A DNA stretch of 20,000 nt from an uncultured virus (IMG/VR IMGVR_UViG_2788500352_000001). Its lineage: Duplodnaviria; Heunggongvirae; Uroviricota; Caudoviricetes. Positions 3,077-20,000 of the stretch are shown here, one piece after another. The stretch lies in IMG/VR virus record IMGVR_UViG_2788500352_000001; one strand, written 5' to 3'. Below the pieces are notes generated by a model. The model saw only the letters and a program-made list of their open reading frames with translations, searched no databases and had not been told where the DNA came from. The position numbers and the translations under genes were made by a program. Numbering within the stretch: the first letter of the stretch is position 1; each line of letters starts with the position of its first letter.

Positions 3077-3082
3077 ATCATC

Positions 3083-4060: not shown

Positions 4061-4116
4061 AAGATCACCCGTAACACACAACTTTCACTTAGGAAGCACA
4101 AACAGGAGTCCAAAAA

Positions 4117-4230
4117 ATGACCTTTGACGATAAGGCCCTGGCAGCCGGATCGGTGATCGCCGCGGTGTTCATTTTTCTTTGGCTTTGGCTCAGTCCGGGC
4201 GTTTTTCTGGGCTGGTTGATCTGGGGGTAA
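4117..4230 (+). CDS. Small membrane peptide (37 aa)
   Basis: AGGAG RBS; MTFDDKALAAGSVIAAVFIFLWLWLSPGVFLGWLIWG. Confidence 0.55.
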   Translation: MTFDDKALAAGSVIAAVFIFLWLWLSPGVFLGWLIWG

Positions 4231-4233
4231 GAG

Positions 4234-4503
4234 ATGGAAGCACAGGATTTAAAACGCCGCGTCCGGGAGCTGTATGAGCAGGTCTCCTTCAGCCAGGAGG
4301 AGACACGACGGCTTCAGATGATCGAGGACGCGATCACAAAGGGAGCAATCGAGAAGGCGTGCGTGCTCTCGATGATCCTCGCGACAAGCACGCACAAAAA
4401 GGCAAACGCCGCGGCCCGGCTGCGGGATACGCTGAGGAGAGCGAAAGATGGCCAAAAACAGCAAACCGCGCAAGAAGTATCGGCCGAAGCCCGTGAGGTT
4501 TAA
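4234..4503 (+). CDS. Phage hypothetical protein (89 aa, helical)
   Basis: In operon, 3 nt after the previous stop. Confidence 0.6.
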   Translation: MEAQDLKRRVRELYEQVSFSQEETRRLQMIEDAITKGAIEKACVLSMILATSTHKKANAAARLRDTLRRAKDGQKQQTAQEVSAEAREV

Positions 4504-5005
4504 CTGTTGGGAACGCTCAGACATCGAGCACCTGCAGGCCGTGTTTCAGGAATTTGAGCTTATCACTGAGTTCAAATTCCCGACCGGCGAAGCGAACATG
4601 GACGACATGTGCTGTGTCCGGGACGTGCTCAATCTCTGCACCCTCGGGATGGTGACACGGGACTGGCTAGATCGGGACGAGGTCAAGGACTGCACACCGA
4701 TCGTCAACGCGGCCGGAGACGCGATCAAACGATGCGCCGACCGCGCCTGCGACCGCAATCCGGACGCCCCGCGGTTTGTGTTCGCCGGAGACGAACTCAA
4801 GGCAGTCCGGGCAGGAGTCGCGATTGCCGGCCCCTTCATTCGGGACAGTCTGGACGAATCACCAACCCGCCTCATCCTGGAGTTCTACGCGATGCGGCAT
4901 CTGACAAGGGGAAAGGACGGGCGATACGCCTACACGGACGAACAACTGAAAAGAGCAATTGAACAAGAGAACGACAACATTGACTGGAGCCACCGCCATG
5001 GATAA
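4448..5005 (+). CDS. Phage hypothetical protein (185 aa)
   Basis: GAGGAG RBS; basic N-terminus KPRKKYRPKPV; in operon. Confidence 0.7.
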   Translation: MAKNSKPRKKYRPKPVRFNCWERSDIEHLQAVFQEFELITEFKFPTGEANMDDMCCVRDVLNLCTLGMVTRDWLDRDEVKDCTPIVNAAGDAIKRCADRACDRNPDAPRFVFAGDELKAVRAGVAIAGPFIRDSLDESPTRLILEFYAMRHLTRGKDGRYAYTDEQLKRAIEQENDNIDWSHRHG

Positions 5006-5161
5006 CACAACACTTCTGATGGACCAGCGGCCGCAGCCGCCTTCAATGGCCAGTTCGACGATGAGTTCAGCTACGGCCGCGTGCGTTGAAGCCCTCGTTG
5101 GCGGTGTAGTGATGGAGCTTTTCGGCGGGGTGCCGCCGTGTGGATTGTTGGAGGAGTGAAG

Positions 5162-5374
5162 ATGCAGACCAAGTTGCTGACTATTAAGGAAGTCGCCAAG
5201 CGGCTCAATAAGTCTGTGAGCACGATCCGCAGTTGGATTCGCGGTTACTACGACAACGGCGACGGCCCGCGCCTGCGGGGGCGCGAATTTATTAAGCCGA
5301 TCCGAGTCGGCGGCACCCTGCAATTTAAAGAATCCGAGCTCGAACGCTGGATTGCCGAAGGAGCTCAACGTTGA
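5162..5374 (+). CDS. Excisionase / AlpA-HTH_17-like DNA-binding protein
   Basis: GGAGGAG RBS; KLLTIKEVAKRLNKSVSTIRSW...KPIRVGGTLQFKESELERWI. Confidence 0.85.
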   Translation: MQTKLLTIKEVAKRLNKSVSTIRSWIRGYYDNGDGPRLRGREFIKPIRVGGTLQFKESELERWIAEGAQR

Positions 5375-5400
5375 CAAACGCACAAGAATCCGCGCATAAT
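5371..5400 (+). promoter_or_regulatory. sigma70 promoter of the c4 / antirepressor-like operon
   Basis: TTGACA (5371-5376), 18-bp spacer, CATAAT (5395-5400). Confidence 0.75.
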
Positions 5401-5512
5401 GCCCGTGCCTCGTCTACCAAGAGGCACCGGATTGGCGCCCGGAAAGCGAAAGGTGTACAGCCGCCTTACTTCCGTATGAGCGGATTTTTTGTGCATAGCA
5501 GTCTCCCTTTAC

Positions 5513-5591
5513 GGGCGGACTGTATGGGGCATGCTTGCATGCGCCGGTACCCTTTTGCACCGGTACGCCAACCCGTACAGTCTGCCCACCA
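5513..5591 (+). ncRNA. c4: C4 antisense RNA-like (P1/P7 c4; P4 CI-type) cloverleaf
   Basis: 16-bp closing stem 5513-5528/5572-5587 (two G-U pairs) followed by ACCA. Internal hairpins at 5529-5542 and 5543-5564. Unpaired ACGCCAA and CCTTTTGC are complementary to targets upstream (TTGGCG 5432, GCGAAAGG 5446) and downstream (TTGGCGT 5595, GCAAAAGG 5623). Confidence 0.8.
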
Positions 5592-5640
5592 CGATTGGCG
5601 TCGTGAGGGCAGTTCTCAAACTGCAAAAGGAGGACACGCT

Positions 5641-5916
5641 ATGCAAGCGTTCCAAGGTGCTGCTCAAACGCAGCCGTCAACATTCAATCTCCCGTTCGCC
5701 ATCACGGCGCTCATCAAACACCAGCTGACCTCCGGCGAAGCCAAGGACTACGCGATTATGTCGTGTTCCGAAGCCAAGAACATCCTCATCGCCGTAGCCG
5801 ATTCGGCCGAAAGCGATAGCCAGATGCTTTCCACCGCAGGGCTTCTCAGCGTCATCAAATCCGCCGCTTCCATTTTGGAATGCGCAGAACTCCTCGTTAA
5901 TGAGACGGAGAAATGA
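5641..5916 (+). CDS. Small c4-controlled protein (91 aa, icd-like position)
   Basis: AGGAGG RBS overlapping the downstream c4 target; ATGA overlap with the Rha gene. The track's longer TTG start runs through the RNA element. Confidence 0.65.
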   Translation: MQAFQGAAQTQPSTFNLPFAITALIKHQLTSGEAKDYAIMSCSEAKNILIAVADSAESDSQMLSTAGLLSVIKSAASILECAELLVNETEK

Positions 5917-6470
5917 AAATGACTCATACCGCTATCGTTACCCCGCCCGTCGTCCAAGATCATGACGGGCGTCCCATGACCACGAGCTTCCAGGTTGCGA
6001 AGTACTTCAACAAACGTCACGACCACGTCCTCCGTGACATCGACAACCTGATTAAAAAGCGCCCCGATTTAGGTGTGTCCAATTTTGGGGAGTCTTTTGA
6101 AAACAAGGCTTTAGGTACTGTTCAGAACCACAAGGTTCGTTTTTATTACATGGATCAAAAAGGCTTTACTCTGCTCTCCATGGGCTTTACGGGCGACAGG
6201 GCTCTCGGCTTCAAAATCGCTTATATCGACCAATTCGAGGCTATGGCGAAAGCTATTGCCAACGCAAAGACGAACTACCTGCAAGACTACATCAACAAGC
6301 TGACGATGCTGGAGAACAAGAGAGAACGCTCGTCCGTTGCTGGGCAAGCCTTACATGAGTGGAAGACCGAAAAAGGACAACTGGAACTCGAAGTGAAGGA
6401 AGCGGAAAAGAAGGTGCAGCCGGAACTGCCGCTGCAGATCAGCGTTTCCATCGAAAATAAGGAGAAGTAA
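5913..6470 (+). CDS. Rha family phage regulator / antirepressor
   Basis: TTSFQVAKYFNKRHDHVLRDI and GFTLLSMGFTGDRALGFKIAYIDQFEAM, characteristic of the pRha family. Confidence 0.9.
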   Translation: MKMTHTAIVTPPVVQDHDGRPMTTSFQVAKYFNKRHDHVLRDIDNLIKKRPDLGVSNFGESFENKALGTVQNHKVRFYYMDQKGFTLLSMGFTGDRALGFKIAYIDQFEAMAKAIANAKTNYLQDYINKLTMLENKRERSSVAGQALHEWKTEKGQLELEVKEAEKKVQPELPLQISVSIENKEK

Positions 6471-6471
6471 A

Positions 6472-6705
6472 ATGAAACAGATCGACCTCACCCCTATCTA
6501 TAAGGCCGCCGCGAAGGTTATGGCAGAAAACGGTATCGAAGAAATCCGCCTCCGCCTTTTGAAGGATGATGACGGCCCGTCAGCCATCGACTTCGAGATC
6601 AACGGCGCGGGCTATATGTCCAACTTCGAGGAATATATCCCCACCATCAAGGCCGTTGAGTCCGACATGATGAAGTTGGTCATCAGCCGCCCTGACAACG
6701 CGTAA
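6472..6705 (+). CDS. Phage hypothetical protein (77 aa)
   Basis: AAGGAG RBS; last gene of the + strand operon. Confidence 0.7.
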   Translation: MKQIDLTPIYKAAAKVMAENGIEEIRLRLLKDDDGPSAIDFEINGAGYMSNFEEYIPTIKAVESDMMKLVISRPDNA

Positions 6706-6731
6706 CCATCTTCGCGGCGTCACGAAAATGG

Positions 6732-6766
6732 TCCCCGCCAACCGAAGGCTGACGGGGATTGTTTTT
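6732..6766 (+). terminator. Terminator between convergent genes
   Basis: TCCCCG...CGGGGA stem followed by TTGTTTTT. Confidence 0.55.
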
Positions 6767-7262
6767 ATATAAAATCAGTCATTTCATTGATTATATTATC
6801 ATGCGTATCAGGAATTAAACTAACCAATTCGCCAGTTATCGAATCTACGATATTGGTCGGAACATTTCTTTTCTTGGACACATATATATAAACAACACCG
6901 AGAAAGGCCTTAAATTTAAGAGTTTCCGCCAAAGACAATCGCATCAATCCTTGATTATCCAATAATATTTGTTTGAGTGCAAAAAGGAATAGAATTTGAG
7001 CCGCACCGGCAGTCCCATATTTCCTAGAAAAAATCACCATCCGCACCCTAATATCTCTATTTGTATATAGCGACCCCGTAGCTAATTTAGCTACATCATT
7101 CGCAATCTTAGCCGCTTCCTGATTAACACCAACAACGCTGACTATCCTTTCCACTTCTTTATTGATAGAAACCTGACGCGTAGCATTGTTGAAACAGAAG
7201 AGCGCGACGGCCAAAACAATGCCACCAATGACGATCCCGATAATCAGTCCTGAGCTCATCAT
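6765..7262 (-). CDS. Low-GC membrane-anchored accessory protein
   Basis: Likely start MMSSGLIIGIVIGGIVLAVALF (N-terminal TM), ATGA-coupled to the upstream gene; visibly AT-rich. Confidence 0.7.
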   Translation of the reverse strand: MMSSGLIIGIVIGGIVLAVALFCFNNATRQVSINKEVERIVSVVGVNQEAAKIANDVAKLATGSLYTNRDIRVRMVIFSRKYGTAGAAQILFLFALKQILLDNQGLMRLSLAETLKFKAFLGVVYIYVSKKRNVPTNIVDSITGELVSLIPDTHDNIINEMTDFI

Positions 7263-7753
7263 TTTGCACTCCCTCGTTTGACAGCATTCATCACCGTGCA
7301 AAGCAATTGAAGCTCGCTTTCAATTACGGATTGAGGCATAGGATAAAGCCACTCATTTTGGGAAAATTGCTCTGTCACATCGCCCTCTGCAAAATAATCA
7401 CTAAAGCCGATATTGTTTAGCTTTTTTATTCTCCACCCTTTGCAATCAATTTCATTTAAACTTGCTAATGATTTTGTTTGCGGTTGCCCTTTTACACTCG
7501 CGCCTTTTGCGTAGCTAATAATCGACCAGATTTTATTTTCATCATGAACGGGGCCGACAAAAAGAAAAGCGTTTAAATTTTTCAAAAACGTACCGGGGCA
7601 AATTTCACCACGCATCTCCTTTTCAACTAACGAAGAACCTTTTTTCGGAACGGTCATTTTGAACCCGCCGACGACAATTTCTTCCGCCGAAAAAGAAGGC
7701 ACAGACATAGCAATACAAGCCACTCCCGCCAAACAGGCAATAACCCTTTTCAT
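7259..7753 (-). CDS. Secreted/periplasmic accessory protein, surface-adhesin-E-like
   Basis: Signal peptide MKRVIACLAGVACIAMSVPSFS-A; EIDCK...W..P..S......LC pattern; start overlaps the integrase stop. Confidence 0.6.
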   Translation of the reverse strand: MKRVIACLAGVACIAMSVPSFSAEEIVVGGFKMTVPKKGSSLVEKEMRGEICPGTFLKNLNAFLFVGPVHDENKIWSIISYAKGASVKGQPQTKSLASLNEIDCKGWRIKKLNNIGFSDYFAEGDVTEQFSQNEWLYPMPQSVIESELQLLCTVMNAVKRGSAK

Positions 7754-8997
7754 TTGTCCACCTTGCTAAAACAAAAATCCGCCCACGCGGTCATCAATTC
7801 ACGCCGGCGCAGGAATAACGTCTGCCGCTCATACGCACCGTTGTAGCCGTCGTTCAGTTTGTGGTGCAGACAAAGATGCGCCACCCGCACGTCAAACCGC
7901 TTATCGTTTCCCAAACTGTCGTCCTGACTCCAGGTCATAAACGTGGCCCGAGCGATTCCGTGCTGAGTCGGACGTACCGTCTTCCCGCGCTTCAGAGTCT
8001 CGGCCTTGTCCGTCCAATCGCCAGGCGTCAATTTGACAAGCCGCCCGAGCATCGTATCCGTCATCACGTTACCGTAACGATTCGGGAAGATCAGCCCTTC
8101 ATGCGGTCGATCAATGCTTTTCAGAAACTCAATCACCTTCGGGGCCAGCGGCACAATCAATGCGCCGTTGCTGGAGACCTTCAGTTGTTCGGGCGGGACT
8201 GTCCAAATCTTCTCTTCCCAGTCTATCTGATCCCAACGGGCTTCCCGCGCCGTCTGCGAACGCGTCGCCGTCAGAATGGAAAACTCAAAGCACTGTCGGC
8301 TACTGATCTGCTTTTCGGCCATAGAGGCAGCGAAGAAGTCCGGCAACTCGCTTACCGCCAACGCCCCGCGGTTTTGTTTGACGTGTCGATTGTTCGGCAA
8401 AAGAAACTGCAACGCCCCATGACGATCCGCCGGATTGTCCCTGTCGGTGTAGCCCTTCGCCTTCGCCCAGTCGAAGACCTTTTTGGCGAAACCGAGGCAC
8501 CTATCCACAATGTCCGGTTTATCCCAAATAGCCGCCGCAATCTCGGCCACGTCCGCAGGCTTGATCTCGTCAATAAGCTTGTCACCGATTCTCGGCCACA
8601 CGTGACAACGCATCCGGCTTTCGAAAACACGATGAGACTTTGAAAGCTCCTCCCAGTTGCCTACGTCGATATTCCACTGCATGTACTCGTCGCAGACTTT
8701 TCGGAAAGTTTTCTTTGCCACGGACACGGGCTTTTTCTTTTTCGAGGCTTCGATCTCTTTCACAAAATCTTCAGCACCAAGTCCCATCAGCCGGGCAGTC
8801 ATAGCCCGCGCATTCGCCAAAGCGATACTTGCAGCACTGCCCAGACCTACGTCATACCTCTTGCCATTTACCTGACGACGCAGCACCCAAGCCCGTGAGC
8901 CACCTTTAATCACGAGGTACAAACCTTTGGTCAACTCGTCCCGATATACGCCGTCGCCAAGATTTCCCAAGGTTCTTTGTGAGAGTTTGGCTTTCAT
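7750..8997 (-). CDS. int: Tyrosine integrase, P4-like with arm-binding domain (integrase 1)
   Basis: GLYLVIKGGSRAWVLR arm domain; catalytic TATR, HGIAR, LHH, AYER. Confidence 0.93.
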   Translation of the reverse strand: MKAKLSQRTLGNLGDGVYRDELTKGLYLVIKGGSRAWVLRRQVNGKRYDVGLGSAASIALANARAMTARLMGLGAEDFVKEIEASKKKKPVSVAKKTFRKVCDEYMQWNIDVGNWEELSKSHRVFESRMRCHVWPRIGDKLIDEIKPADVAEIAAAIWDKPDIVDRCLGFAKKVFDWAKAKGYTDRDNPADRHGALQFLLPNNRHVKQNRGALAVSELPDFFAASMAEKQISSRQCFEFSILTATRSQTAREARWDQIDWEEKIWTVPPEQLKVSSNGALIVPLAPKVIEFLKSIDRPHEGLIFPNRYGNVMTDTMLGRLVKLTPGDWTDKAETLKRGKTVRPTQHGIARATFMTWSQDDSLGNDKRFDVRVAHLCLHHKLNDGYNGAYERQTLFLRRRELMTAWADFCFSKVDK

Positions 8998-9215: not shown

Positions 9216-9371
9216 TAATTCGAATTTCAGATATTCTCAGATAATCTCCCTCAGTCTCCATTGTTCACCTAATACGATGAATTTAAATGGAAACACTGCC
9301 TACCGTCAGTCTCTGTTGTTCTCTGTCGTTCTATATCAAACTCCCTCCAGCTCGCGAATGATTTCACCCAA

Positions 9372-9439
9372 CTATGCTCCCAATGGGTATGATTTCTTCG
9401 GAATTTTTCATTTTTTCTTCGGAACTTTTGGGAGCATAG
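9372..9439. repeat. Inverted and direct repeats upstream of integrase 2
   Basis: CTATGCTCCCAA (9372-9383) / TTGGGAGCATAG (9428-9439) enclosing two TTTCTTCGGAA copies. Confidence 0.65.
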
Positions 9440-9462
9440 CCTCCAACCCGCAGGAGAGCGGC

Positions 9463-10794
9463 ATGAGAGTAGCTGAACGCCTCACAGCGATACGACTGAA
9501 GACCCTTGAAAAGGACACTGCCTGCGGCGTTGTGCCGGGGCTTTACGTGACTGTCCGGAAGCTCGCCGACGGATCGTTTGCCAAGTATTTTGTTCTCAAA
9601 GATCGAAAACAAAAACGCTCCTACACCATCGGAAAATTTCCGGACATCTCACTCTCAGAAGCATTCACCAAGGCAGCAGAATGGCGAGACCTCATCCTCA
9701 AGGGCGATGACCCTTCCAAACAACTCTTAGAGGCCTCCTCTCCCCAAAAACTGACGTATGAGAATCTCATGTTTCAATGGGTCGAATTCAACAATAAACG
9801 CGGCCGGTGGAAAGATGACAAGAAACCTCGACTCGGCGTGTGGCAAGGATATTTCAGAAACCACATTCCAGACTCGCTGCGCCAGTGTCCGGCCGCTGAA
9901 TTAACGCCCGAGATGTTTGCTGACGCGCTGGCGGAAAAATGGCGGACCATGACCAACACCCCGGAAAAGATTCTTGCTGACACCAGGAATGCCATTGACT
10001 GGGCAATCCGACAAGAAATCATTCCGCCAATGATCAACCCGGCGCGCATTCACGGCGGAAAACTTGGAGACCTACTGCCGTTGAACAGACCGGAAACCGG
10101 CCACGAACCGGCTCTCCCCGTCCAAAAGATGCCGGCATTCTTCAAAATGCTCATGGAATACACCCTTTCGAGCCCTGCCGCCAGATGCTTGGCCTTTGCC
10201 ATCCTGACGGCAGCCAGAAACTCTACCGCTCGAGAGGCCACTTGGAGTGAAATCCAAAAGGACGATGACGGCAACTGGATCCACCTGATTCCGCGTTCAC
10301 GCATGAAGGTCAAGGCCGAAGGCTTGCCGTTTGACCGAAAGACCCCTCTGAGTTCCGTTGCGGTCAGGCTGCTGGAAACCATGCCGAGAGTCAAATATGA
10401 AGGACAGGATTACCTCTTTCCCAGTATCTTTCATCGTAGCCTCAAGCCGATGTCTCCGGAAGCCTTCTCGCGCCTCTTGAAAAGAATGCACGACCGCCAG
10501 CGCAAAATTGACGGTATCGGCTGGGTTGATCCGGAACAAATCCACGGAGCAACGCAGACACCCCGCATTGTGACGCTGCATGGCTGCGCCAGAGCAAGCT
10601 TCAATACCTGGGCCAAGGACGGGAAACGATTTGGACATCCCTTCTTTCCAAAGGATGTCCGGGAGAGCTGCCTCGACCACAGAAATGAGTCTTACCAGTG
10701 TGCCTATGACCGCGACCAAGCCACTGGAGAAATGCGCGATGTCTTTGAGGCCTGGGGACAATTCCTGACACAGGAAATGGATGACTTCAACTAA
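9463..10794 (+). CDS. int: Tyrosine integrase, P4-like (integrase 2)
   Basis: AGGAG RBS before ATG 9463; arm domain (VPGLYVTV..IGKFPDISLSEA); catalytic TAAR, HGCAR, LDH, AYDR. Confidence 0.92.
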   Translation: MRVAERLTAIRLKTLEKDTACGVVPGLYVTVRKLADGSFAKYFVLKDRKQKRSYTIGKFPDISLSEAFTKAAEWRDLILKGDDPSKQLLEASSPQKLTYENLMFQWVEFNNKRGRWKDDKKPRLGVWQGYFRNHIPDSLRQCPAAELTPEMFADALAEKWRTMTNTPEKILADTRNAIDWAIRQEIIPPMINPARIHGGKLGDLLPLNRPETGHEPALPVQKMPAFFKMLMEYTLSSPAARCLAFAILTAARNSTAREATWSEIQKDDDGNWIHLIPRSRMKVKAEGLPFDRKTPLSSVAVRLLETMPRVKYEGQDYLFPSIFHRSLKPMSPEAFSRLLKRMHDRQRKIDGIGWVDPEQIHGATQTPRIVTLHGCARASFNTWAKDGKRFGHPFFPKDVRESCLDHRNESYQCAYDRDQATGEMRDVFEAWGQFLTQEMDDFN

Positions 10795-10827: not shown

Positions 10828-11277
10828 TCATGGACGATGAAGTATTTCCTTTACTGCTGATCGATCTGATGATAACCGGATGACCAATCGGCTGCCCTCT
10901 TCAGGAGATTCCGCACTCTCAACAAGAAGGCGTCTACATTCTGCGATTCGTCGCTCACAAAGCTTTCCGGAATCGCAGGTGCCGGCGGGCACTCGACCAC
11001 CGCCGGCGGCCGCGCCGCGCAGGCGCTCAACATCCCGCCGCATACCAGCAAGCTGAGAGTCAAGCGCATCGATTTCAGCCTGCTTCTTGTCGACCGCGTC
11101 GGCGAGCTTCTTCGCATTGTCTGTCTCCCTTTTCGTGAGTTCGGCCTGGTACTTCTGAGCCGCGGCCGCGTAGCCGGCTTTAAGGCGCGCGATGTCTGCA
11201 GTGCGCAGGGCGTCCGCAAAGGCGTATCCGGCACTGAAGACGACCACGGCCGCAGCGAGGTAGAGCCACTTGGCCAT
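10828..11277 (-). CDS. Rz-like inner-membrane spanin
   Basis: N-terminal TM (MAKWLYLAAAVVVFSAGYAF), coiled coil, Cys-containing tail; follows the endolysin. Confidence 0.8.
   Translation of the reverse strand: MAKWLYLAAAVVVFSAGYAFADALRTADIARLKAGYAAAAQKYQAELTKRETDNAKKLADAVDKKQAEIDALDSQLAGMRRDVERLRGAAAGGGRVPAGTCDSGKLCERRIAECRRLLVESAESPEEGSRLVIRLSSDRSAVKEILHRP
10851..11069 (-). CDS. Rz1-like outer-membrane lipoprotein spanin, embedded in Rz
   Basis: MRLTLSLLVCGGMLSA-C lipobox, Pro-rich (CPPAPAIP), in an alternative frame inside Rz. Confidence 0.8.
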   Translation of the reverse strand: MRLTLSLLVCGGMLSACAARPPAVVECPPAPAIPESFVSDESQNVDAFLLRVRNLLKRAADWSSGYHQIDQQ

Positions 11278-11279
11278 CT

Positions 11280-11534
11280 TTAAAGCAGCCAACCGCCGGC
11301 AAAGAAGCAGATCATGCCGAAGCCGACACAGACAGGCGCCCAGAAGAGACGGCACTTGCGGCGCATCTCGGTATCGAGCTTGGCCTTCTCGGCCTTGAGT
11401 TTTTCGTAGGCGTCCAGCGTGAGATCTTCGACCTTCACGCCGATTTTCTTAAGCCATTCCTGAAAGTCTTCGCTGTTCATCACATACTCCTTGAAAAATT
11501 TAAAAACGTATTTGATGATTTCTTCTTTGGTCAT
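11280..11534 (-). CDS. Lysis-region protein with C-terminal TM (copy A)
   Basis: 84 aa, hydrophobic C-terminus, between endolysin and spanin. Confidence 0.7.
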   Translation of the reverse strand: MTKEEIIKYVFKFFKEYVMNSEDFQEWLKKIGVKVEDLTLDAYEKLKAEKAKLDTEMRRKCRLFWAPVCVGFGMICFFAGGWLL

Positions 11535-11902
11535 TTTTTGCAGTTGTCCCAGCGCGCCTTGAATCCTCTGGCATCAACATGCACAAAGCTGTCATACAGC
11601 CCCACTCCGCCGTCAGAATTGAGCTCCAAACAGAGATCCTGAAGTGCCGGGAGGTCTTCCTGATGCTCCGGACGAATGTCAGCCGCGAGGCCCCTGACGT
11701 GGTAAGAGTTCTCCACGCCGCCCACGGCGCGATTGTGCTCAGGCGAGCGATAAGCGCTGTTGACAATGATCGGGCGGCCCCATGCCGTACGGATTCGGTT
11801 CAATAAAAAGAGCAGTTCTGATCTGACCTGCTGCTCCCCGAACGGAGAGCGCTGGCCGTCCTTGCTGGCGAGCTCTTTTGTGTCAAAGTATCCGATTTGC
11901 AT
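11531..11902 (-). CDS. Endolysin, peptidase M15A family (copy A)
   Basis: SAYRSPEHN, SYH..GLAADI, FVHVD motifs; start MQIGY matches copy B MKIGY. Confidence 0.9.
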   Translation of the reverse strand: MQIGYFDTKELASKDGQRSPFGEQQVRSELLFLLNRIRTAWGRPIIVNSAYRSPEHNRAVGGVENSYHVRGLAADIRPEHQEDLPALQDLCLELNSDGGVGLYDSFVHVDARGFKARWDNCKK

Positions 11903-12398
11903 TTTTGCCTTCTTTCGGCTTGTCGCCGATCTCTTCAACTGATTCATCCAACCGGGCGTTGATCTGTTTGAGTGCCTTGCGAATAATCGGAGGGATGCAT
12001 CCGCCGAGATCCATGCGATCGAGGTTCTCGATGATGCTCATGAGTTCTGTGAAGCCGTAGGCCGCGATGACAATGCCTTGGAACACAGCGAGATAGCCCA
12101 GCGTGTAGGCAAACTGCACGTCAAGGCCGTGCGCAAAGCCCACGACAACAAACATCAGGCCCTTTTTCAAAAGCCCATGAGACACGATCCGGCTCTCAAA
12201 GTCGCGTTTGACGAACGCGGCCGCCATGCCCGTCACAAGGTCTGCTCCGACAAAGATCGCGAGCCATATGATGAGCGGCTTGGTATCGAGACCGAAGAAA
12301 AACGAAAGAGCGCCGGTGAGGGCGCCCACGGCCGCGGCAAGTATTTTCTCTGTGCCAACAGGCAAAAAGTCCGGCGTCATGTGCATCCTCTCCGGCAT
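11883..12398 (-). CDS. Phage holin (holin_4_1-like), copy A
   Basis: TM segments; DLVTGM, GLLKK, ELMSIIENL...IP motifs. Confidence 0.88.
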   Translation of the reverse strand: MPERMHMTPDFLPVGTEKILAAAVGALTGALSFFFGLDTKPLIIWLAIFVGADLVTGMAAAFVKRDFESRIVSHGLLKKGLMFVVVGFAHGLDVQFAYTLGYLAVFQGIVIAAYGFTELMSIIENLDRMDLGGCIPPIIRKALKQINARLDESVEEIGDKPKEGKNANRIL

Positions 12399-12401
12399 AA
12401 A

Positions 12402-12641
12402 TCACTCCCGCAGATCCGGCGGGAATTGCCGCCGGCCCTTTTCGCTCTTCCACGACTCTTCGCAGTGGTTCTTGTCGAACCACAGCAGGGCATCGATCAG
12501 CCGCTTTGGCCAGAGCCGCTGGCCCGAGCAGTATTCCCGCCAGGCCCGGCTCGACAAACTCTCATCCGGCCACCCGCCGATCAGGGCGTTGGCGAGTTGA
12601 TCCAACGCGATCAGCACGTTCTTGATGTATGCGTACATCAC
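12402..12641 (-). CDS. Phage hypothetical protein (copy A)
   Basis: DQLANALIGGWPDESLSSRAWR..IDALLWF..NHC pattern. Confidence 0.75.
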   Translation of the reverse strand: MMYAYIKNVLIALDQLANALIGGWPDESLSSRAWREYCSGQRLWPKRLIDALLWFDKNHCEESWKSEKGRRQFPPDLRE

Positions 12642-13033
12642 GCGGCCGTAAAGTCGACAGGGACAAACTTGATCTTGATTTTCGCGAGGCCTTCTTTCGT
12701 CTTCGCGTCATCAATCGCGTCTCGCGTCTTCCACTTGTAGTCGTAAGCGGCGAGGCCTGCAGAGATAATTTCCTGATTCAAGACCTGGAGTTGCTCAAGG
12801 TTGAGCGGGTGTTTTACGTTGTTAGCGTCCATAAATTCGACGCCAGCTGCGGTGTAGGTGTTCTGCGCCTCTAAAGCCTCGACAAGGGCGCCGACGTCAG
12901 TTTTCGCACGGTCGTCGCTGTCAGCCTCAAAGCCGAGAGAAGACTTTAAGGTGGCGGCTTCACCGCGCCAGGCAGTAAAGGCACCGTCCAGCTCACGCTT
13001 CTTTTCTTCTTTCAGCTCATCGAGCGTCTTTTC
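12638..13033 (-). CDS. 3' part of the DUF4376-like protein (copy A, cut at the N)
   Basis: Near-identical to 14610-15005. Confidence 0.75.
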   Translation of the reverse strand, partial: EKTLDELKEEKKRELDGAFTAWRGEAATLKSSLGFEADSDDRAKTDVGALVEALEAQNTYTAAGVEFMDANNVKHPLNLEQLQVLNQEIISAGLAAYDYKWKTRDAIDDAKTKEGLAKIKIKFVPVDFTAA

Positions 13034-13034: not shown

Positions 13035-13242
13035 CGATTTCAGCCTGCTTCTTGTCGACCGCGTCGGCGAGCTTCTTCGCATTGTCTGTCTCCCTTTTCG
13101 TGAGTTCGGCCTGGTACTTCTGAGCCGCGGCCGCGTAGCCGGCTTTAAGGCGCGCGATGTCTGCAGTGCGCAGGGCGTCCGCAAAGGCGTATCCGGCACT
13201 GAAGACGACCACGGCCGCAGCGAGGTAGAGCCACTTGGCCAT
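13035..13242 (-). CDS. 5' part of the Rz-like spanin (copy B, cut at the N)
   Basis: Matches 11070-11277. Confidence 0.75.
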
Positions 13243-13244
13243 CT

Positions 13245-13499
13245 TTAAAGCAGCCAACCGCCGGCAAAGAAGCAGATCATGCCGAAGCCGACACAGACAG
13301 GCGCCCAGAAGAGACGGCACTTGCGGCGCATCTCGGTATCGAGCTTGGCCTTCTCGGCCTTGAGTTTTTCGTAGGCGTCCAGCGTGAGATCTTCGACCTT
13401 CACGCCGATTTTCTTAAGCCATTCCTGAAAGTCTTCGCTGTTCATCACATACTCCTTGAAAAATTTAAAAACGTATTTGATGATTTCTTCTTTGGTCAT
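13245..13499 (-). CDS. Lysis-region TM protein (copy B)
   Basis: Identical protein to 11280-11534. Confidence 0.7.
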   Translation of the reverse strand: MTKEEIIKYVFKFFKEYVMNSEDFQEWLKKIGVKVEDLTLDAYEKLKAEKAKLDTEMRRKCRLFWAPVCVGFGMICFFAGGWLL

Positions 13500-13867
13500 T
13501 TTTTGCAGTTGTCCCAGCGCGCCTTGAATCCTCTGGCATCAACATGCACAAAGCTGTCATACAGCCCCACTCCGCCGTCAGAATTGAGCTCCAAACAAAG
13601 ATCCTGCAGCTCAGGAAGATCCTCCAGGTTCTCCGGCCTGATGTCTGCTGCAAGCCCCTGGACGTGGTAAGAGTTCTCCACGCCGCCCACAGCGCGGTTG
13701 TGCTCTGGCGAGCGATAAGCACTGTTGACAATGATCTGCCGCCCCCATGCCGTCCGGATCCGGTTCAATAAAAAGAGCAGCTCTGATCTGACCTGCTGCT
13801 CCCCGAACGGCGAGTGCTGGCCGTCCTTGCTGGCGAGCTCCTTTGTGTCAAAGTATCCGATTTTCAT
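13496..13867 (-). CDS. Endolysin, peptidase M15A family (copy B)
   Basis: Same motifs; several substitutions relative to copy A. Confidence 0.9.
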   Translation of the reverse strand: MKIGYFDTKELASKDGQHSPFGEQQVRSELLFLLNRIRTAWGRQIIVNSAYRSPEHNRAVGGVENSYHVQGLAADIRPENLEDLPELQDLCLELNSDGGVGLYDSFVHVDARGFKARWDNCKK

Positions 13868-14370
13868 TTTTGTAACGGTCCTTCTTTCGGCTTGTCGCCG
13901 ATCTTTTCCACTGATTCATCTAGCCGGGCGTTGATCTGTTTTAGTGCCTTGCGGATGATCGGAGGGATGCATCCGCCGAGATCCATGCGATCGAGGTTCT
14001 CGATGATGCTCATGAGTTCTGTGAAGCCGTAGGCCGCGATGACAATGCCTTGGAACACAGCGAGATAGCCCAGCGTGTAGGCAAACTGCACGTCAAGGCC
14101 GTGCGCAAAGCCCACGACAACAAACATCAGGCCCTTTTTCAAAAGCCCATGAGACACGATCCGGCTCTCAAAGTCGCGTTTGACGAACGCGGCCGCCATG
14201 CCCGTCACAAGGTCTGCTCCGACAAAGATCGCGAGCCATATGATGAGCGGCTTGGTATCGAGACCGAAGAAAAATGAAAGAGCGCCGGTGAGGGCGCCCA
14301 CGGCCGCGGCAAGTATTTTCTCTGTGCCAACAGGCAAAAAGTCAGGCGCCATGTGCATCCTCTCCGGCAT
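13864..14370 (-). CDS. Phage holin (copy B)
   Basis: As copy A, with a different C-terminus (EGPLQK). Confidence 0.88.
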   Translation of the reverse strand: MPERMHMAPDFLPVGTEKILAAAVGALTGALSFFFGLDTKPLIIWLAIFVGADLVTGMAAAFVKRDFESRIVSHGLLKKGLMFVVVGFAHGLDVQFAYTLGYLAVFQGIVIAAYGFTELMSIIENLDRMDLGGCIPPIIRKALKQINARLDESVEKIGDKPKEGPLQK

Positions 14371-14373
14371 AAA

Positions 14374-14613
14374 TCACTCCCGCAGATCCGGCGGGAATTG
14401 CCGCCGGCCCTTTTCGCTCTTCCACGACTCTTCGCAGTGGTTCTTGTCGAACCACAGCAGGGCATCGATCAGCCGCTTTGGCCAGAGCCGCTGGCCCGAG
14501 CAGTATTCCCGCCAGGCCCGGCTCGACAAACTCTCATCCGGCCACCCGCCGATCAGGGCGTTGGCGAGTTGATCAAACGCGATCAGCACGTTCTTGATGT
14601 ATGCGTACATCAC
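14374..14613 (-). CDS. Phage hypothetical protein (copy B)
   Basis: As 12402-12641. Confidence 0.75.
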   Translation of the reverse strand: MMYAYIKNVLIAFDQLANALIGGWPDESLSSRAWREYCSGQRLWPKRLIDALLWFDKNHCEESWKSEKGRRQFPPDLRE

Positions 14614-15374
14614 GCGGCCGTAAAGTCGACAGGGACAAACTTGATCTTGATTTTCGCGAGGTCTTCTTTCGTCTTCGCGTCATCAATCTCGTCTCGCGTC
14701 TTCCACTTGTAGTCGTAAGCGGCGAGGCCTGCAGTGATAATTTCCTGATTCAAGACCTGAAGTTGCTCAAGGTTGAGCGGGTGTTTTACGTTGTTGGCGT
14801 CCATAAATTCGACGCCAGCTGCGGTGTAGGCGTTCTGCGCCTCTAAAGCCTCGACAAGGGCGCCGACGTCAGTTTTCGCACGGTCGTCGCTGTCAGCCTC
14901 AAAGCCGAGAGAAGACTTTAAGGTGGCGGCTTCACCGCGCCAGGCAGTAAAGGCACCGTCCAGCTCACGCTTCTTTTCTTCTTTCAGCTCATCGAGCGTC
15001 TTTTCCGGAATCTTTTCAACAATCCACTCCAGATCAGGCCCACGTGCGATTCGATGCGTTGTGCTGCCCTCTGTGAGCTTTTGGAACAACTGGCGAAGCT
15101 CATTGCATCTTTGCGTCTGGGACTGATGAGAAACCGCCCCCATCGCAACACAATCTTCTGCCGTCTTTGGTTTCGGTTCCTTAATCCATGAGGACTTATC
15201 GTCCGATAGGCGGTAAAACGACTGGGCCGCAGCCGGATCCTCTGCGGGCGCATCAATCTGCGCCACATCATCCGGAAGCAGCAACTCTCCGTCCGGCATT
15301 TCCATCACCATCTTGAAATCGCAGAAATAGCCGTCCTCATCAACGCAGGGTAAACGAACTAATTTTGATGCCAT
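14610..15374 (-). CDS. DUF4376-like tail-fibre assembly/associated protein
   Basis: KTLDELKEEKKREL, FMDANN...L, YDYKW..R..ID.AKT.E.L..I motifs; GGAG RBS; downstream of the tail-fibre locus. Confidence 0.75.
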   Translation of the reverse strand: MASKLVRLPCVDEDGYFCDFKMVMEMPDGELLLPDDVAQIDAPAEDPAAAQSFYRLSDDKSSWIKEPKPKTAEDCVAMGAVSHQSQTQRCNELRQLFQKLTEGSTTHRIARGPDLEWIVEKIPEKTLDELKEEKKRELDGAFTAWRGEAATLKSSLGFEADSDDRAKTDVGALVEALEAQNAYTAAGVEFMDANNVKHPLNLEQLQVLNQEIITAGLAAYDYKWKTRDEIDDAKTKEDLAKIKIKFVPVDFTAA

Positions 15375-16554
15375 GTTAAAAACTCCAATTACCTCAAAAA
15401 AGTTAGCCGCACTTAAGCCGCGCCAAAAGCGCTACTCAATCGCGGTTGGTTACGGGCTGTCTTTAAAAGTTCAGCCATCAGGCACTAAGTCCTGGGTACT
15501 GCGAATCTGCACACTCGGCCGTGTAGCCGACTTGGCCATCGGCCACTTCCCTGAAATGTCCCTGGCCGAAGCAAAGCAAATCGCCCGCAGAAAGCGGAAA
15601 GAGCTGGGCCAGGAGCCGCCTCTTGGCTACACCCTCAAAGATGCTTTCCACTTATGGTGCAATTTAAAAAAGGGGAGAATCACGAGCTACGCTGACGAAC
15701 GACGAAGGCTCGAGAAGTACGTCATTGGTCCTCTGGGGAATCGCCAAATTGACGAAATCACCGCGCCGCTCATGATCCAAATCGTTCGGCCAATTGAAAC
15801 CGCCGGACACAGAGCAACACTCAAGCGCGTCATCATGCGGGTGCGCGAAATCCTAGACTTAGCGGTATGTGCCGGCTACATTCAGCACAATCCAATTGAT
15901 CGCCTAAACCGCATCTTCGCCCCGCCAGTCACTCGCCCCATGCCGGCCCTTCCATGGCAGGAGCTCGAATCAATCATGGCTGTCATAGCCGCCGCCCCGA
16001 CCAGGCTACAAATCTTGTTTCTTTGGTCGCTATGCTCAATGCTGCGGCCAGGCGAAACTGCAAAGCTCAGGAAAGACTGGATTAAAGACGAAACGCTGAC
16101 CATTCCCGGAGACCAGATGAAAAAGCGCCGGCCTCACAGGGTTCCACTAACAAATTTCATGCTCCGTCTACTGGCGGAGGAACACAAACTCTCACCTCAC
16201 CCGAAAAATGCCTTTGTCTTTTCAGGCATGCGGCCAAACGAGCACATGTCAAGCCAGAAGCTTGCCAAGTACCTTCATCAGACAACCCTTTCAGGAAAAC
16301 TCGTTGCTCACGGACTGCGGTCAATCGCCAGGAGCTGGCTGGCAGACCACGCCATCCCGTTTGAAGTTGCGGAATCATGCCTCTCTCACGTGTCCGGGAG
16401 TCAAGTTTCACGCGCTTACCAAAGGTCTGATTATTTGGAGGCAAGACGCCCCGTCATGGACGCGTGGTGCTCTTATGTATACGGCTGTGCCCTGAGAGCC
16501 GGTCTTCTTCCACACATTATCAGCGCCAATGAGGAGGCCAAAGAAAAGTCTTAG
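15373..16554 (+). CDS. Tyrosine recombinase, putative shufflon invertase
   Basis: P4-integrase-like with arm domain (GLSLKVQPSGTKSWVLR); catalytic LRPGE, HGLR, LSH, AYQR; ends 70 bp from the first CCGGACAT site. Confidence 0.88.
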   Translation: MLKTPITSKKLAALKPRQKRYSIAVGYGLSLKVQPSGTKSWVLRICTLGRVADLAIGHFPEMSLAEAKQIARRKRKELGQEPPLGYTLKDAFHLWCNLKKGRITSYADERRRLEKYVIGPLGNRQIDEITAPLMIQIVRPIETAGHRATLKRVIMRVREILDLAVCAGYIQHNPIDRLNRIFAPPVTRPMPALPWQELESIMAVIAAAPTRLQILFLWSLCSMLRPGETAKLRKDWIKDETLTIPGDQMKKRRPHRVPLTNFMLRLLAEEHKLSPHPKNAFVFSGMRPNEHMSSQKLAKYLHQTTLSGKLVAHGLRSIARSWLADHAIPFEVAESCLSHVSGSQVSRAYQRSDYLEARRPVMDAWCSYVYGCALRAGLLPHIISANEEAKEKS

Positions 16555-16624
16555 CCCAAACCACAGGGGGCAGCCACCAGTATTCAGCCCCCTATCTTCT
16601 GATGATTTATAGACAGTTTGGGCA

Positions 16625-16861
16625 CCGGACATAACAGGATCGATCATCCCAAAAAACACAACAGACGACACCGTAGATGGCTCATTTAACGGCGCTTTCT
16701 ATAAATTATCTAGCGGCGGCAAGGGAGCATGGTCTGTCGATGATTCAGAAAATGCTCAGTATGGGCTCGGCTTCCGAGCTGGGTATTCAGACTCGACTTA
16801 CGGCCAGTCAAGCGGTGTGTCCGTCCCGGCATGCTATGCCTTGATAATCATTAGCGTGTAA
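16625..16861 (+). other. Silent cassette 1
   Basis: PDITGSIIPKNTTDDTVDGSFNGAFYK...YGQSSGVSVPACYALIIISV*; open frame, no start codon. Confidence 0.9.
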
Positions 16862-17073
16862 GCCGCCGGAACAGATACCCCGGAAGTGCGGCCGTAGACA
16901 CTGCTCGAATCGGATGCCGTAAAAACCAGTCGTCCGGGAACAGTCTCAGCCACGCTATCTAAGTGCGATGAATAGGCGTCTTTGGTAGCCTTTTCCACTG
17001 AGAAAACTCCTGTACTTTTGCGTGTAGGCACGTACTCTATGCCTCTGACCTCCGTATACCCGCTGATGTCCGG
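16834..17073 (-). other. Silent cassette 2
   Basis: PDISGYTEVRG...YGRTSGVSVPAAYTLMIIKA*. Confidence 0.9.
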
Positions 17074-17292
17074 CCGGACATCATTGGTGAATTTGACGTT
17101 GGGCACGCTGAATTACAATATACAAGCGGCGCTTTTTCTCTCATAGCCAAAGAGCAATCAAATTACGGTGTAGACAAATATCAACACCGAAAAATTGTTA
17201 AGTTTATGGCTTCTTCCGAAAACTCAATATATGGAAGATCTAACAATGTCAACGTCCCGTCAGCCTACGCCCTGATGATTATCAAAGTGTAA
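17074..17292 (+). other. Silent cassette 3
   Basis: PDIIGEFDVGHAELQYTSGAFSL...YGRSNNVNVPSAYALMIIKV*. Confidence 0.9.
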
Positions 17293-17492
17293 GAAGCGGG
17301 TACTTGCACCGTTGATGAGTTTCCGTAGATGCCATTCGACTTGGAAGCCGAAAAACCTAAAACAGTTGCTCTTATGGAGGAATCTTGGCAATGAGTATCA
17401 GCGTTCCCTTGGGATACTGCATAGAACGCCCCTTTGTGGTCAGTTGTCATTAAGGGATAGCCGCCGATTTGTACAGTGCCAGTTATGTCCGG
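17265..17492 (-). other. Silent cassette 4
   Basis: PDITGTVQIGGYPLMTTDHKGAFY...YGNSSTVQVPASYTLIIIRA*. Confidence 0.9.
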
Positions 17493-17725
17493 ACATAACG
17501 GGCACTGCTAATTATTTATCCGTTGGGTTAACTTTCGATGCTAAGCCTCATCCAACCGGGGCTTTCTATTGTCCCAATGTCTCTGCCAATGGGGGTGTTG
17601 CTGGGGATTCTCTTTGGCGAATGGATAGTTTTCAGTTCGCTGCCAGATGGTCCAGCTCGACATATGGAAACTCCTCAGGTGTTTCTGTTTCCGCTTGTTA
17701 TGCCTTGATAATAATTAAGACATAG
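17489..17725 (+). other. Silent cassette 5
   Basis: PDITGTANYLSV...YGNSSGVSVSACYALIIIKT*. Confidence 0.9.
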
Positions 17726-17946
17726 TAAGCTGGCACAGATACCGTACTGGCACGCCCGAAAATATAGTTACCTTGAGATGCCTCAATATCAATTTTGGCT
17801 CGGTAGTGGCTGCTACCTTTAGAGGCATATTGTGAATACGGATTATTCTCCGCTGCCACAGAATAGGAGCACACGCCACCAGCCCAAAAGATAACGCCAT
17901 TATTTTCTGTATTCGTATCGCAGAGCAATGTACCAGTTATCTGTCC
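17698..17946 (-). other. Silent cassette 6 (degenerate site)
   Basis: GQITGTLLCD...FGRASTVSVPAYYVLIIIKA*; begins GGACAGATAAC rather than CCGGACATAAC. Confidence 0.85.
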
Positions 17947-18168
17947 CCGGACATAACCGGAGAATTTCCGAATAATGACGCCGAGTATGACAAATATTAC
18001 GCAGGAGCTTTTTGGACAGGCACTCCATTTGAAGGAGGTTATTCCGATGACCCTCAATCAAAAGGAAAGACCGGCCGATTTAAAGCATCGTGGGCCAGTT
18101 CCATTTATGGATATAACTCAGACGTTTTGGTTGATGCGCTTTATGTCTTAATAATAATTAAAACGTAA
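17947..18168 (+). other. Silent cassette 7
   Basis: PDITGEFPNNDAEYDKYYAGAFWTG...YGYNSDVLVDALYVLIIIKT*. Confidence 0.9.
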
Positions 18169-18370
18169 ACGGCATCCACGGTTACTCCGGAGTAGATGCG
18201 GCCATAAGTCGCTACTGATCGTGAGGCTCTGAATGACCTCCATAACGAGTGGTATACCCCCGCCTGCATAATTTGACGAACCTTCACCGGAACTATCAGC
18301 AAAAGCCCCGGCTAACGCTCCTGTCTGATTAAGTCCAGATATAAGGCTTCCTGTTATACGTAATGTCCGG
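18141..18370 (-). pseudogene. Cassette 8, frameshifted
   Basis: 230 bp. The CCGGACATTAC site is out of frame with ITGSLISG..GAFADS; a second shift near C5 (18257-18261) leads to ..SFRASRS..YG..GVTVDAVYVLIIIKT*. Confidence 0.8.
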
Positions 18371-18600
18371 ACATCAGTGGAACTTGGGGCTCCGCTTTCG
18401 AAGCCGATAACAGCGGGTGGCAGTCCACAGGGGCCGTGTATTCAGCAAAAACTGGTTCATTGAGTATGGAGATTCCCGGCTTCTCTGAGACGAGAGAATT
18501 TATACGTAGATCTTTTCGTGCCTCTCGTTATAGCGGCTATTACGGAGCATCAGGAGTATCAGTTGATGCCACCTATGTCTTGATGATCATCAAAGCATAG
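18367..18600 (+). other. Silent cassette 9
   Basis: PDISGTWGSAFEADNSGWQSTGAVYS...YGASGVSVDATYVLMIIKA*. Confidence 0.9.
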
Positions 18601-18794
18601 AGAGCATCAACACTAACCCCGTTAGACCGACCGAAGTATCCACTGACCAGGCTTGCGGACAAGTGAATGCCAGGCGTTTTTCCTAAAACAGGCGAATTGA
18701 TGTGGCTGGCGGAATATGACGTTGACGTATACAACGCTCCGGAAGTTTTTTCTGTACCTCCGCTCACAAGGCTAATACTGCCAGTGATGTCCGG
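18573..18794 (-). other. Silent cassette 10
   Basis: PDITGSISLVSGG...FGRSNGVSVDALYALMIIKT*. Confidence 0.9.
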
Positions 18795-19021
18795 ACATAA
18801 GTGGTTATGCAACATCCGGCATTATTTGGAAAAGCGCCTGGAGGACCTACGGTGCCCTCTGGACAGAAGACTCGGGAAACAGTGACAAAAAGTCCGTAGC
18901 GCCCGGGCCGGATCCGATTGTTAACGTCCGGATGCGTGCCGGCGCGTATGACAGTACGTATGGAAGATCGTCATCTGTGTCTGTCGCCGCGGCTTATGTT
19001 CTGATGATAATCAAGGAATAG
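18791..19021 (+). other. Silent cassette 11
   Basis: PDISGYATSGIIWKSAWRTYGALWT...YGRSSSVSVAAAYVLMIIKE*. Confidence 0.9.
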
Positions 19022-19801
19022 GCCGCAGGAACGGAGACAGATGATGAATTTCCGTACACATTATTTGAATAATGGGCGGCAAAATTTAAAGCATAGTCAT
19101 CACCGTAGCGGCCCCATCCGCATGAAAAATCAACCTTTTTTCCACGATTAAAGCAACCGGAATATATAGCACCACTAGAAAAATGAAAGCCACCAGAATC
19201 ACCATTGAAGTTTGGTGAAAAAGAACCCGTGATGTCCGGTAACCCAGCACTTACGTAGCTACCGAGGTTTCCCGTGTTGGTTGTGCCCAACACATGCCTA
19301 CCATTGAAATTAGGCAAATTAAACGTGGTAGAGCCGTTGCCTGATCCATACCGGGTACCAATGGCCGCAAACAACTTGGCATAGGTCGTTCTGGAGACCG
19401 CTGCACCGTTACATAAAAGCCAACCGTCAGGGATCGTGCTGCCGGCAATCATTTTGTAATCACCGGGCTGAGCCCCTTCGCTCACTGTGATGTCAATCAC
19501 CTGATCGACATCACCGTTGTATTCGCCGACCTTTACGCCGTTCACATTGACAGTGAGCTTTTTCTGCTGAATGTCGACTGCGACCGCCTTGCTGCCGTCA
19601 TAATCCCCCAGCTTCGTGCCATTTCTCTTAATCGTCAGTGCATACGGACTCTTGAGGCTCGTCGGAATCTTCGGAAGCGTTACGTTATACGTAGCCTTAT
19701 TGCTCCCGTCATACGTCACCTTCGTCACACCGCCGATCTGCAAAGTAAGCGCCTGAGGATTTTTCAGCGACTTCGGAGTGCCGCTCAAATCCGAATAATT
19801 C
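18994..19801 (-). CDS. Tail fibre with tail-collar domain (5' end lost at N19802); currently fused to cassette 12 (18994-19239)
   Basis: Three LT....G....Y[DN]G repeats; collar motif PDGWLLCNGAAVSRTTYAKLFAAIGTRYGSGNGSTTFNLPN; then GLPDITG...YSLIIIRT*. The frame stays open (NYSDLSGTP) up to the N. Confidence 0.92.
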
Positions 19802-19802
19802 N

Positions 19803-20000
19803 TGGATCGACATCCGGATCGGTGGCCGTGTAGGTCATCACTGCCGGATTTGTGCTTTTCCCGGATACCGGTCGCAGGTTGAAGTCATAACCGCCCGCCT
19901 TTTGCTTGGTTTTCTGTTTCGGGTCCCGGTAGGACACCGTACAGGTGCGGTATGACTCGCTCTGAGCACTCTCAAATTCCCAAGAAATGACCTGCGATGT
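19803..20000 (-). CDS. Internal fragment of a probable baseplate hub / late control D-like protein
   Basis: Open frame TSQVISWEFESAQSESYRTCTVSYRDPKQK...TYTATDPDVDP; resembles gpD-like proteins; bounded by the N and the window edge. Confidence 0.5.

Follow-up and report, generated by a model that had tools for sequence, protein, structure and literature searches.

The stretch analysed here, hereafter the window, comprises 20,000 nucleotides of an uncultured virus (IMG/VR record IMGVR_UViG_2788500352_000001; Caudoviricetes). Near its end, a tail-fibre gene is followed by an array of alternative fibre ends (16625-19239) and a tyrosine recombinase. The locus belongs to a prophage with a P2/Mu-like tail in a Sutterella-like gut bacterium, and its best explanation is a shufflon that swaps fibre tips, a reading to which we assign a probability of roughly 0.8. 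The array does rearrange in nature, as four independent lines of evidence agree.

In the proposed mechanism, a constant fibre part of ~228 amino acids (aa), collar domain included, ends at the codons for P-D-I, which lie in the 8-bp core CCGGACAT. Six invertible segments follow, with promoter-less, start-less tips of 72-82 aa that open with the same 8 bases. Recombination of the copy at the expression site with any oppositely oriented copy would invert the intervening DNA and fuse another tip in frame, and further inversions would permute the segments, making wrong-facing cassettes reachable. Only the fused tip would be made. Its position behind the collar domain makes this tip the most likely receptor-binding end, an assignment taken only from collar-domain matches, and the switch would thus change host range. 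Inversion is most likely catalysed by the CP4-57/P4-type tyrosine recombinase next to the array, and the strands would presumably be exchanged within the 8-bp core.

Crossover sites, cassettes and fibre tips

The window has 15 exact copies of the core CCGGACAT, where 0.63 would be expected; none of 200 shuffles reached 15, and 11 of the copies lie inside 16625-19239. On the + strand, sites begin at 16625, 17074, 17489, 17947, 18367 and 18791. On the - strand, five exact sites end at 17073, 17492, 18370, 18794 and 19239, while the twelfth site, at 17946, is degenerate and reads GQITG in place of PDITG. The total of 11 exact sites and one degenerate site, six on each strand, is the repeat arrangement of a multiple-inversion system, or shufflon.

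The array consists of six segments of 419-458 bp, each with two convergent start-less tip cassettes (Table 1). A profile built from 11 cassettes has 12 matches in the window, and the 12 cassettes measure 72-82 aa. Ten of them (72-81 aa) are open to their stop codon in the frame CCG GAC AT- (P-D-I), and no cassette has a start codon at its site. Pairwise identity between cassettes is 25-49% (median 37%), with a common frame of PDI(T/S)G ... GAF ... YG.SS.V.V.A.Y.L.IIK, in which GAF is central and the YG stretch C-terminal. The -18370 cassette is broken by 7 extra bases past its site and by a frameshift (G5 versus G4), the latter missing from a second copy of the locus on contig C20. An earlier interpretation made from the DNA letters alone (the sequence-only reading) had given the coordinates of the six segments exactly, along with the correct length of the expressed tip (81 aa), and had rightly described the tips as divergent and start-less. 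Its count of twelve tips holds by profile, with the reservation that two are crippled, -17946 by its degenerate site and -18370 by breakage.

Within each of the six segments, the two convergent cassettes run into one another over exactly 28 nt. This near-palindrome specifies the motif Y-x-L-I/M-I-I-K/R/S and the two stop codons on both of its strands. The overlap is also present in relatives, where it is shorter. Head-to-head sites of adjoining segments range from a 4-base overlap up to a 6-base gap. The possibility that the head-to-head neighbour serves as the second arm of each site was rejected because of this variable spacing, which implies that each site works independently. Directly left of the first site, 16593-16612 holds the relic of a + strand cassette end (TATCTTCTGATGAT..., compare 18995-19008), which suggests a lost thirteenth cassette.

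The fibre gene is interrupted by a single N at 19802, so the window holds only its last 264 codons. On C20 the full-length fibre has 301 aa, with the crossover at P229-D230-I231, and matches Pfam Collar at 4.1e-23. Structural matches of the collar are 8kec (5.3e-9) and T4 gp12 (1ocy, 0.01). Aligning 41 homologues shows residues 1-233 to be nearly invariant and the remainder variable; an AlphaFold2 model of the 301-aa fibre from this alignment was unusable, with a mean predicted local distance difference test (pLDDT) score of 38.7. Among the 120 best public full-length homologues, 116 contain P[DN]I at 60-100 aa from the C-end. When a tip match is defined as at least 80% identity, 60 of these 116 fibres end in a tip that matches one of 9 different window cassettes: -17492 (14 fibres), +18791 (14), +18367 (13) and +16625 (10) are common, and +17074 (3), -18794 (3), -19239 (1), +17489 (1) and -17073 (1) are rarer. 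Another 55 carry other tips and one is without a match, and neither crippled cassette (-17946, -18370) was found among the 116 natural tips at this threshold. With ten cassettes open and nine tips present on the constant fibre, the locus encodes one constant gene with alternative in-frame C-termini.

Rearrangement in genomes and metagenomes

A second copy of the locus occurs in the same assembly, at 2991-7061 of a C20 piece, and is 95-99% identical. This copy has a single segment, the inverted homologue (95% identical) of 17947-18370, and its expressed tip is of the 17947 type, fused to the constant fibre at the same CCGGACAT. In this copy (L009, G000:C20, 3140-3590), the distal junction consists of three overlapping cores (+, -, +) with nothing between them. 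The single-segment copy may be the scar or product of a deletion between sites.

Metagenomes were sampled through Logan contigs from four runs belonging to three studies (indoor, mouse gut and wastewater, according to their records), which cover the cassettes at mostly 95-100% identity. These contigs contain nine alternative joints, every one with its breakpoints at sites. Three of the joints switch strand, four skip ahead and two run back. Eight joints have 8-11 bases that are common to both sides, and 19239>18367 has none. Cassette -17073 is joined to the constant fibre in run X6, and in foreign contigs other + cassettes follow the left flank of 16625. Joint 18366>17074 occurs in run X1, where 18367 comes after the 19239 site, making the 19239 cassette internal there. 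Segment 5 takes part in the strand-changing joints 16625<>18371 and 17066<>18799. Many run contigs end exactly at a site, and since the repeats are shorter than the word length of the assembler, which we take to be 31 bases, such ends would be a sign of branching inside one sample. Depth is 5.5 in X2 and 11.1 in X3 for the contig that connects the left flank with 17489, compared with 20.1 and 19.3 for the left flank itself. This difference points to at least two arrangements in a sample; coexisting strains would give the same picture.

Related loci tell a similar story. Searching with the recombinase yielded 14 foreign viral contigs at 59-66% identity, all 14 of which share the order recombinase, 2-6 cassettes, collar fibre. 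L019 is distinguished from L020, L022 and L026 by one inverted segment of ~440 bp, with the crossover within CCGAACAT and collinear flanks of 96-99% identity, and L021 has one additional segment. L017 and L018, which are 99.5-100% identical, carry their segments as A-B-C and C-B'-A, respectively, a change that needs at least three inversions. In both the run contigs and the relatives, segments are inverted and permuted with breakpoints at the repeats, as in a shufflon. The sequence-only reading had proposed inversion at CCGGACAT that fuses tips in frame, and this fits every rearrangement seen, whether the nine joints, the C20 copy, the public tips or the relatives. The alternative junctions it anticipated were recovered in the metagenome-run contigs, all at sites, and the segment order that it suggested comparing among relatives is not fixed.

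Within each array the 8-bp core is uniform, and among lineages it differs (CCGGACAT, CCGAACAT, CCAAACAT, CCGAATAT, CCTGACAT, CCTAATAT, CCTAACAT) while encoding P-(D/N)-I in every one. This is the pattern that would be expected of an overlap region matching between partner sites.

Of 231 other species genomes in the bacterial family, 21 carry recombinase orthologues (at least 50% identity). Cassettes occur at 13 of the 20 genome loci that were fetched, with 13, 10, 7, 6, 5, 5, 4, 3, 3, 2, 2, 2 and 2 profile matches per locus. At six of the 20 the contig ends 166-625 bp past the recombinase, and one has 6.3 kb downstream yet no cassette; among the 14 loci having at least 1 kb downstream of the recombinase, 13 bear cassettes. 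L054 contains 17 exact CCAAACAT sites against 0.35 expected and L069 contains 10 CCTAATAT sites, so that twelve cassettes are a large set but not a unique one, and the number that the earlier description called unusual is not exceptional in this family. Overall, the family ranges from 2 to about 17 cassettes. Tandem cassette runs instead of convergent pairs are found in L063 (G219; 4211-5813, + + + + - - -) and L062 (G059; 1316-2005, + + +).

The candidate invertase and its setting

The N-terminus of the adjacent recombinase matches the CP4-like integrase arm domain 3jtz (4.5e-9), and its catalytic residues are intact (R225, K250, H313-x-x-R316, H339 and Y349). Its domains and these R-K-H-R-H-Y residues place it among the CP4-57/P4-type integrases, in keeping with its earlier description as P4-integrase-like with intact catalytic motifs. 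The NCBIfam match, PRK09692, gives 195 bits against a cut-off of 434, which makes the enzyme a diverged branch of this type. The closest named homologues (61-64% identity) are from Sutterella wadsworthensis and S. parvirubra. No deposited phage has a recombinase above 33% identity or a fibre match over 80% of the length, and a megablast of the locus against deposited phages gave no match. A recombinase search of genome contigs returned one true relative, whose contig stops just past the gene. Recombinase genes with a frameshift or in-frame stop adjoin arrays in L023, G057:C38 and G006:C37, and these may be frozen shufflons or sequencing errors. Judged from adjacency and conserved synteny, the recombinase is probably the invertase of the array.

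Several findings weigh against a working shufflon or against this choice of enzyme. The recombinase has the full architecture of an integrase, arm-type domain included, and its closest relatives in deposited phages (at most 33% identity) are annotated as ordinary integrases. A second PF00589 gene was not found in three of five related viral records, nor on the contig in three of five chromosomal relatives, leaving the recombinase as the sole match there. The rve transposase is likewise missing from all five related phage records, four of which are 97-100% complete according to CheckV. The recombinase might then be the prophage integrase, either integrating and shuffling at once or integrating only, with another enzyme in charge of shuffling. 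We consider this unlikely, as the gene does not sit at a prophage end but in the late region, with the fibre on one side and the chaperone and lysis genes on the other. Moreover, the window, G001, G004 and G192 have a second integrase-like gene 5-6 kb off, past the lysis genes, and the recombinase always travels with cassettes. Direct repeats of the site are also present, and deletions should be possible; the puzzle of how inversion is favoured over deletion has been raised for the armless enzyme of the Rin shufflon, discussed below (Mavrich et al., 2018; PMC6109161, in the passages used here). A speculative answer, which we hold to be a long shot, is that a single arm-domain P4-type integrase was recruited as the shufflon enzyme. 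It would serve as both integrase and tip invertase in the roughly half of the family without a second recombinase, and the arm domain together with putative arm sites would bias inversion over deletion.

Inversion by a recombinase acting in trans, either a host serine invertase or another tyrosine recombinase of the window, is improbable. This genome does have PF00239 genes at two places, both on another contig (C21), the window contains two more tyrosine recombinases at 7750-8997(-) and 9277-10794(+), and the consulted part of PMC6109161 considers a recombinase in trans for one Bifidobacterium phage locus. However, a serine recombinase (Resolvase, PF00239) was found in none of the five related phage records, and the two other tyrosine recombinases are not conserved beside arrays, unlike the adjacent one, which is so conserved in 14 of 14 viral loci. 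It is very improbable that the array is an evolutionary record instead of a working switch, its orders having arisen from rare illegitimate or homologous exchange between strains. The evidence does consist of contigs rather than reads of a clone, for which coexisting strains explain the variety as well as on-going switching does. The segment order in the window is known from one assembly only (C17 and its duplicate C2), and two of the 12 cassettes, -17946 and -18370, have decayed. Yet all breakpoints fall at the 8-bp core, and three-step permutations separate relatives that are 99.5-100% identical. The run contigs that end at sites would also point to branching within samples, given the assumed word length, and six of the 20 relatives' contigs break off shortly after the recombinase. 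A tip-swapping shufflon served by the adjacent recombinase thus remains the preferred reading.

The gene on the other side of the recombinase encodes a DUF4376 protein, which is probably a constant tail-fibre assembly chaperone. In L026 the gene at this position carries Phage_tail_APC (4.9e-21), and the DUF4376 gene is present in all 13 viral loci having upstream sequence. The start codons of the recombinase (+) and DUF4376 (-) genes overlap in CATG at 15372-15375, so the promoter of each gene must sit inside the other; in relatives they are 15-20 bp apart. Next come the holin, endolysin and spanin genes. Past these lie two further integrase-like genes, divergently transcribed, and then the early region (CI-like repressor, RecE-like exonuclease and Rha-like regulator). 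On C20, P2-type baseplate genes (Baseplate_J, Tail_P2_I and Phage_GPD) lie upstream of the fibre.

The window is the final 20 kb of contig C17 in a draft assembly of 2.35 Mb and 22 contigs, which was scaffolded by single-N joints, two of them within the window (13034 and 19802). Positions 13035-19801, with the array and its flanks, were assembled as a single piece, and 15973-19592 is found again on contig C2 at 99.97% identity. The lysis module (holin, endolysin, spanin) occurs twice, at 11070-13033 and 13035-15005, with 97% identity and the N at 13034 between the copies; most likely, two prophage copies were put in tandem by the scaffolder. The 197 bases past the other joint (19804-20000) have five further copies in the genome at 99.5-100% identity (C17:9286, C17:10925, C20:12390, C20:14771 and C20:15621), and those on C20 lie within or beside open frames matching the Phage_GPD hub domain. 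Either assembly redundancy or a number of related tail clusters may account for these copies. ARAGORN detected no tRNA in the window, which therefore offers no clue to an attachment (att) site, and none was identified. A scan of 14500-19800 for promoters (7 versus 5.4 expected) and terminators (9 versus 5.3) gave numbers near chance.

Table 1. Positions of array features, neighbouring genes and alternative joints, in window coordinates
Feature	Position	Strand	Description
Segment 1	16625..17073		+ cassette 16625-16861 (78 aa); - cassette 17073-16834 (79 aa)
Segment 2	17074..17492		+ cassette 17074-17292 (72 aa); - cassette 17492-17265 (75 aa)
Segment 3	17489..17946		+ cassette 17489-17725 (78 aa); - cassette 17946-17698 (82 aa, degenerate site)
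Segment 4	17947..18370		+ cassette 17947-18168 (73 aa); broken - cassette 18370-18141
Segment 5	18367..18794		+ cassette 18367-18600 (77 aa); - cassette 18794-18573 (73 aa)
Segment 6	18791..19239		+ cassette 18791-19021 (76 aa); - cassette 19239-18994 (81 aa, currently expressed)
28-nt overlaps	16834-16861, 17265-17292, 17698-17725, 18141-18168, 18573-18600, 18994-19021	both	near-palindrome
Constant part of tail-fibre gene	19240..19801	-	collar domain; cut by scaffold joint at 19802
3' part of fibre gene with expressed tip	18994-19788	-	Pfam Collar 1.9e-22
Tyrosine recombinase, CP4-57/P4-type	15373..16554	+	Pfam Arm-DNA-bind_3 3.9e-13, Phage_int_M 2.4e-14, Phage_integrase 5.7e-17
DUF4376 protein	14610..15374	-	Pfam DUF4376 1.6e-9; outside array, divergent from recombinase
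Integrase-like gene, 415 aa	7750-8997	-	arm-type domain; Phage_integrase score just under Pfam cut-off
Integrase-like gene, 505 aa	9277-10794	+	arm-type domain; Phage_integrase score just under Pfam cut-off
Alternative joints	16624>17489, 16624>17947, 16625<>18371, 17063>19230, 17065<>17954		Logan contigs
Alternative joints, rest	17066<>18799, 17073>18791, 18366>17074, 19239>18367		Logan contigs

Comparison with known inversion systems

The shufflon of plasmid R64 diversifies pilV, the adhesin of a conjugative pilus, through the tyrosine recombinase Rci, with four segments providing seven C-termini. Its segments contain convergent alternative C-termini, and the conserved arm of its sites is on the cassette side only. 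The prophage locus resembles R64 in its multiple inversion, most likely by a tyrosine recombinase, its convergent alternative C-termini and its cassette-side-only conservation of sites. It differs in its target, a phage fibre instead of a pilus adhesin. For its enzyme, the NCBIfam scan, in which Rci itself was not compared, gave only a CP4-57-type integrase model.

Gin, Cin and Min are serine invertases, and in these systems a chaperone gene is inverted along with the tip. Their purpose is the same as here, to give a myovirus that infects a Gram-negative host a choice of fibre C-termini, and Min also works by multiple inversions. The locus nevertheless lacks the adjacent serine recombinase of these systems: a serine recombinase is present in 0 of 5 related phages, and the constant chaperone lies outside the array. 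The tail-fibre inversion systems of Mu (Gin), P1 (Cin) and p15B (Min) are described in PMC6109161.

Fibre genes have been recognized as inversion targets more broadly. Both tail-fibre and tail-collar genes appear as targets of programmed inversion in a systematic survey (PMC9881135). The tail-fibre shufflon of BV01-like Phocaeicola vulgatus phages has three cassettes, six isoforms and a 10-bp motif, as reported in the passages used here of a preprint (PMC13596623). Like this locus, it belongs to a temperate gut phage and has a recombinase-flanked multi-cassette array overlapping the distal end of the fibre. Its configurations were recovered from reads. In contrast to this locus, its host is a member of the Bacteroidota.

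The Rin shufflon of Bifidobacterium breve and B. longum prophages, described as the first phage-encoded tyrosine invertase, uses an armless XerD-like enzyme on five variable cassettes in tandem orientation, with a crossover site of 11 bp (Mavrich et al., 2018; PMC6109161). Rin has also been reported in Eggerthella lenta prophages (PMC8778435). As far as these sources are drawn on here, Rin and this locus have in common that they are phage-encoded and that a constant N-terminal receptor-binding protein gene is followed by start-less variable C-terminal cassettes. A short asymmetric crossover site marks the start of each cassette, and a tyrosine recombinase flanks the far side of the array. Inversions of Rin were seen by comparing prophages and virions. 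While Rin has no arm-type domain, the enzyme of this locus carries Arm-DNA-bind_3 and thus does not belong with the armless XerD-like invertases. Five tandem cassettes and an 11-bp site in Rin contrast with 12 cassettes in six convergent pairs (28-nt overlap) and an 8-bp core here. The host is Gram-negative, the tail module P2/Mu-like and the fibre of collar type, whereas the Rc/Rv proteins are described as resembling the receptor-binding proteins of lactococcal phages; the proteins of the two systems are presumably unrelated.

Tyrosine-recombinase tail-fibre shufflons have been in print since 2018 (Rin; PMC6109161), and the Sutterella-phage family was not found described in the material covered. 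Literature searches with the terms shufflon, tail fiber, tyrosine invertase and Rin found no paper on such a system in Sutterella phages. The locus extends these shufflons, first described for siphophages of Actinobacteria, to contractile-tail prophages of gut Betaproteobacteria related to Sutterella. A probable invertase from an arm-bearing integrase lineage, not a Xer-like one, suggests that such switches arose more than once. With its ~75-aa putative receptor-binding tips on one scaffold, the family is also a compact library, defined at the sequence level, in which the tracking of variable host surfaces by gut phages can be studied. Over half of the sampled natural tips are absent from this array. 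For assembly and annotation it serves as a warning, as contigs break at the arrays and cassettes are missed in gene calling.

The closest known system is the Rin shufflon, from which this locus differs in recombinase type, host and fibre. What is distinctive here is an arm-bearing, integrase-type recombinase, a collar-fibre scaffold with ~75-aa tips, a 28-nt antiparallel overlap and a family-wide range of 2 to ~17 tips.

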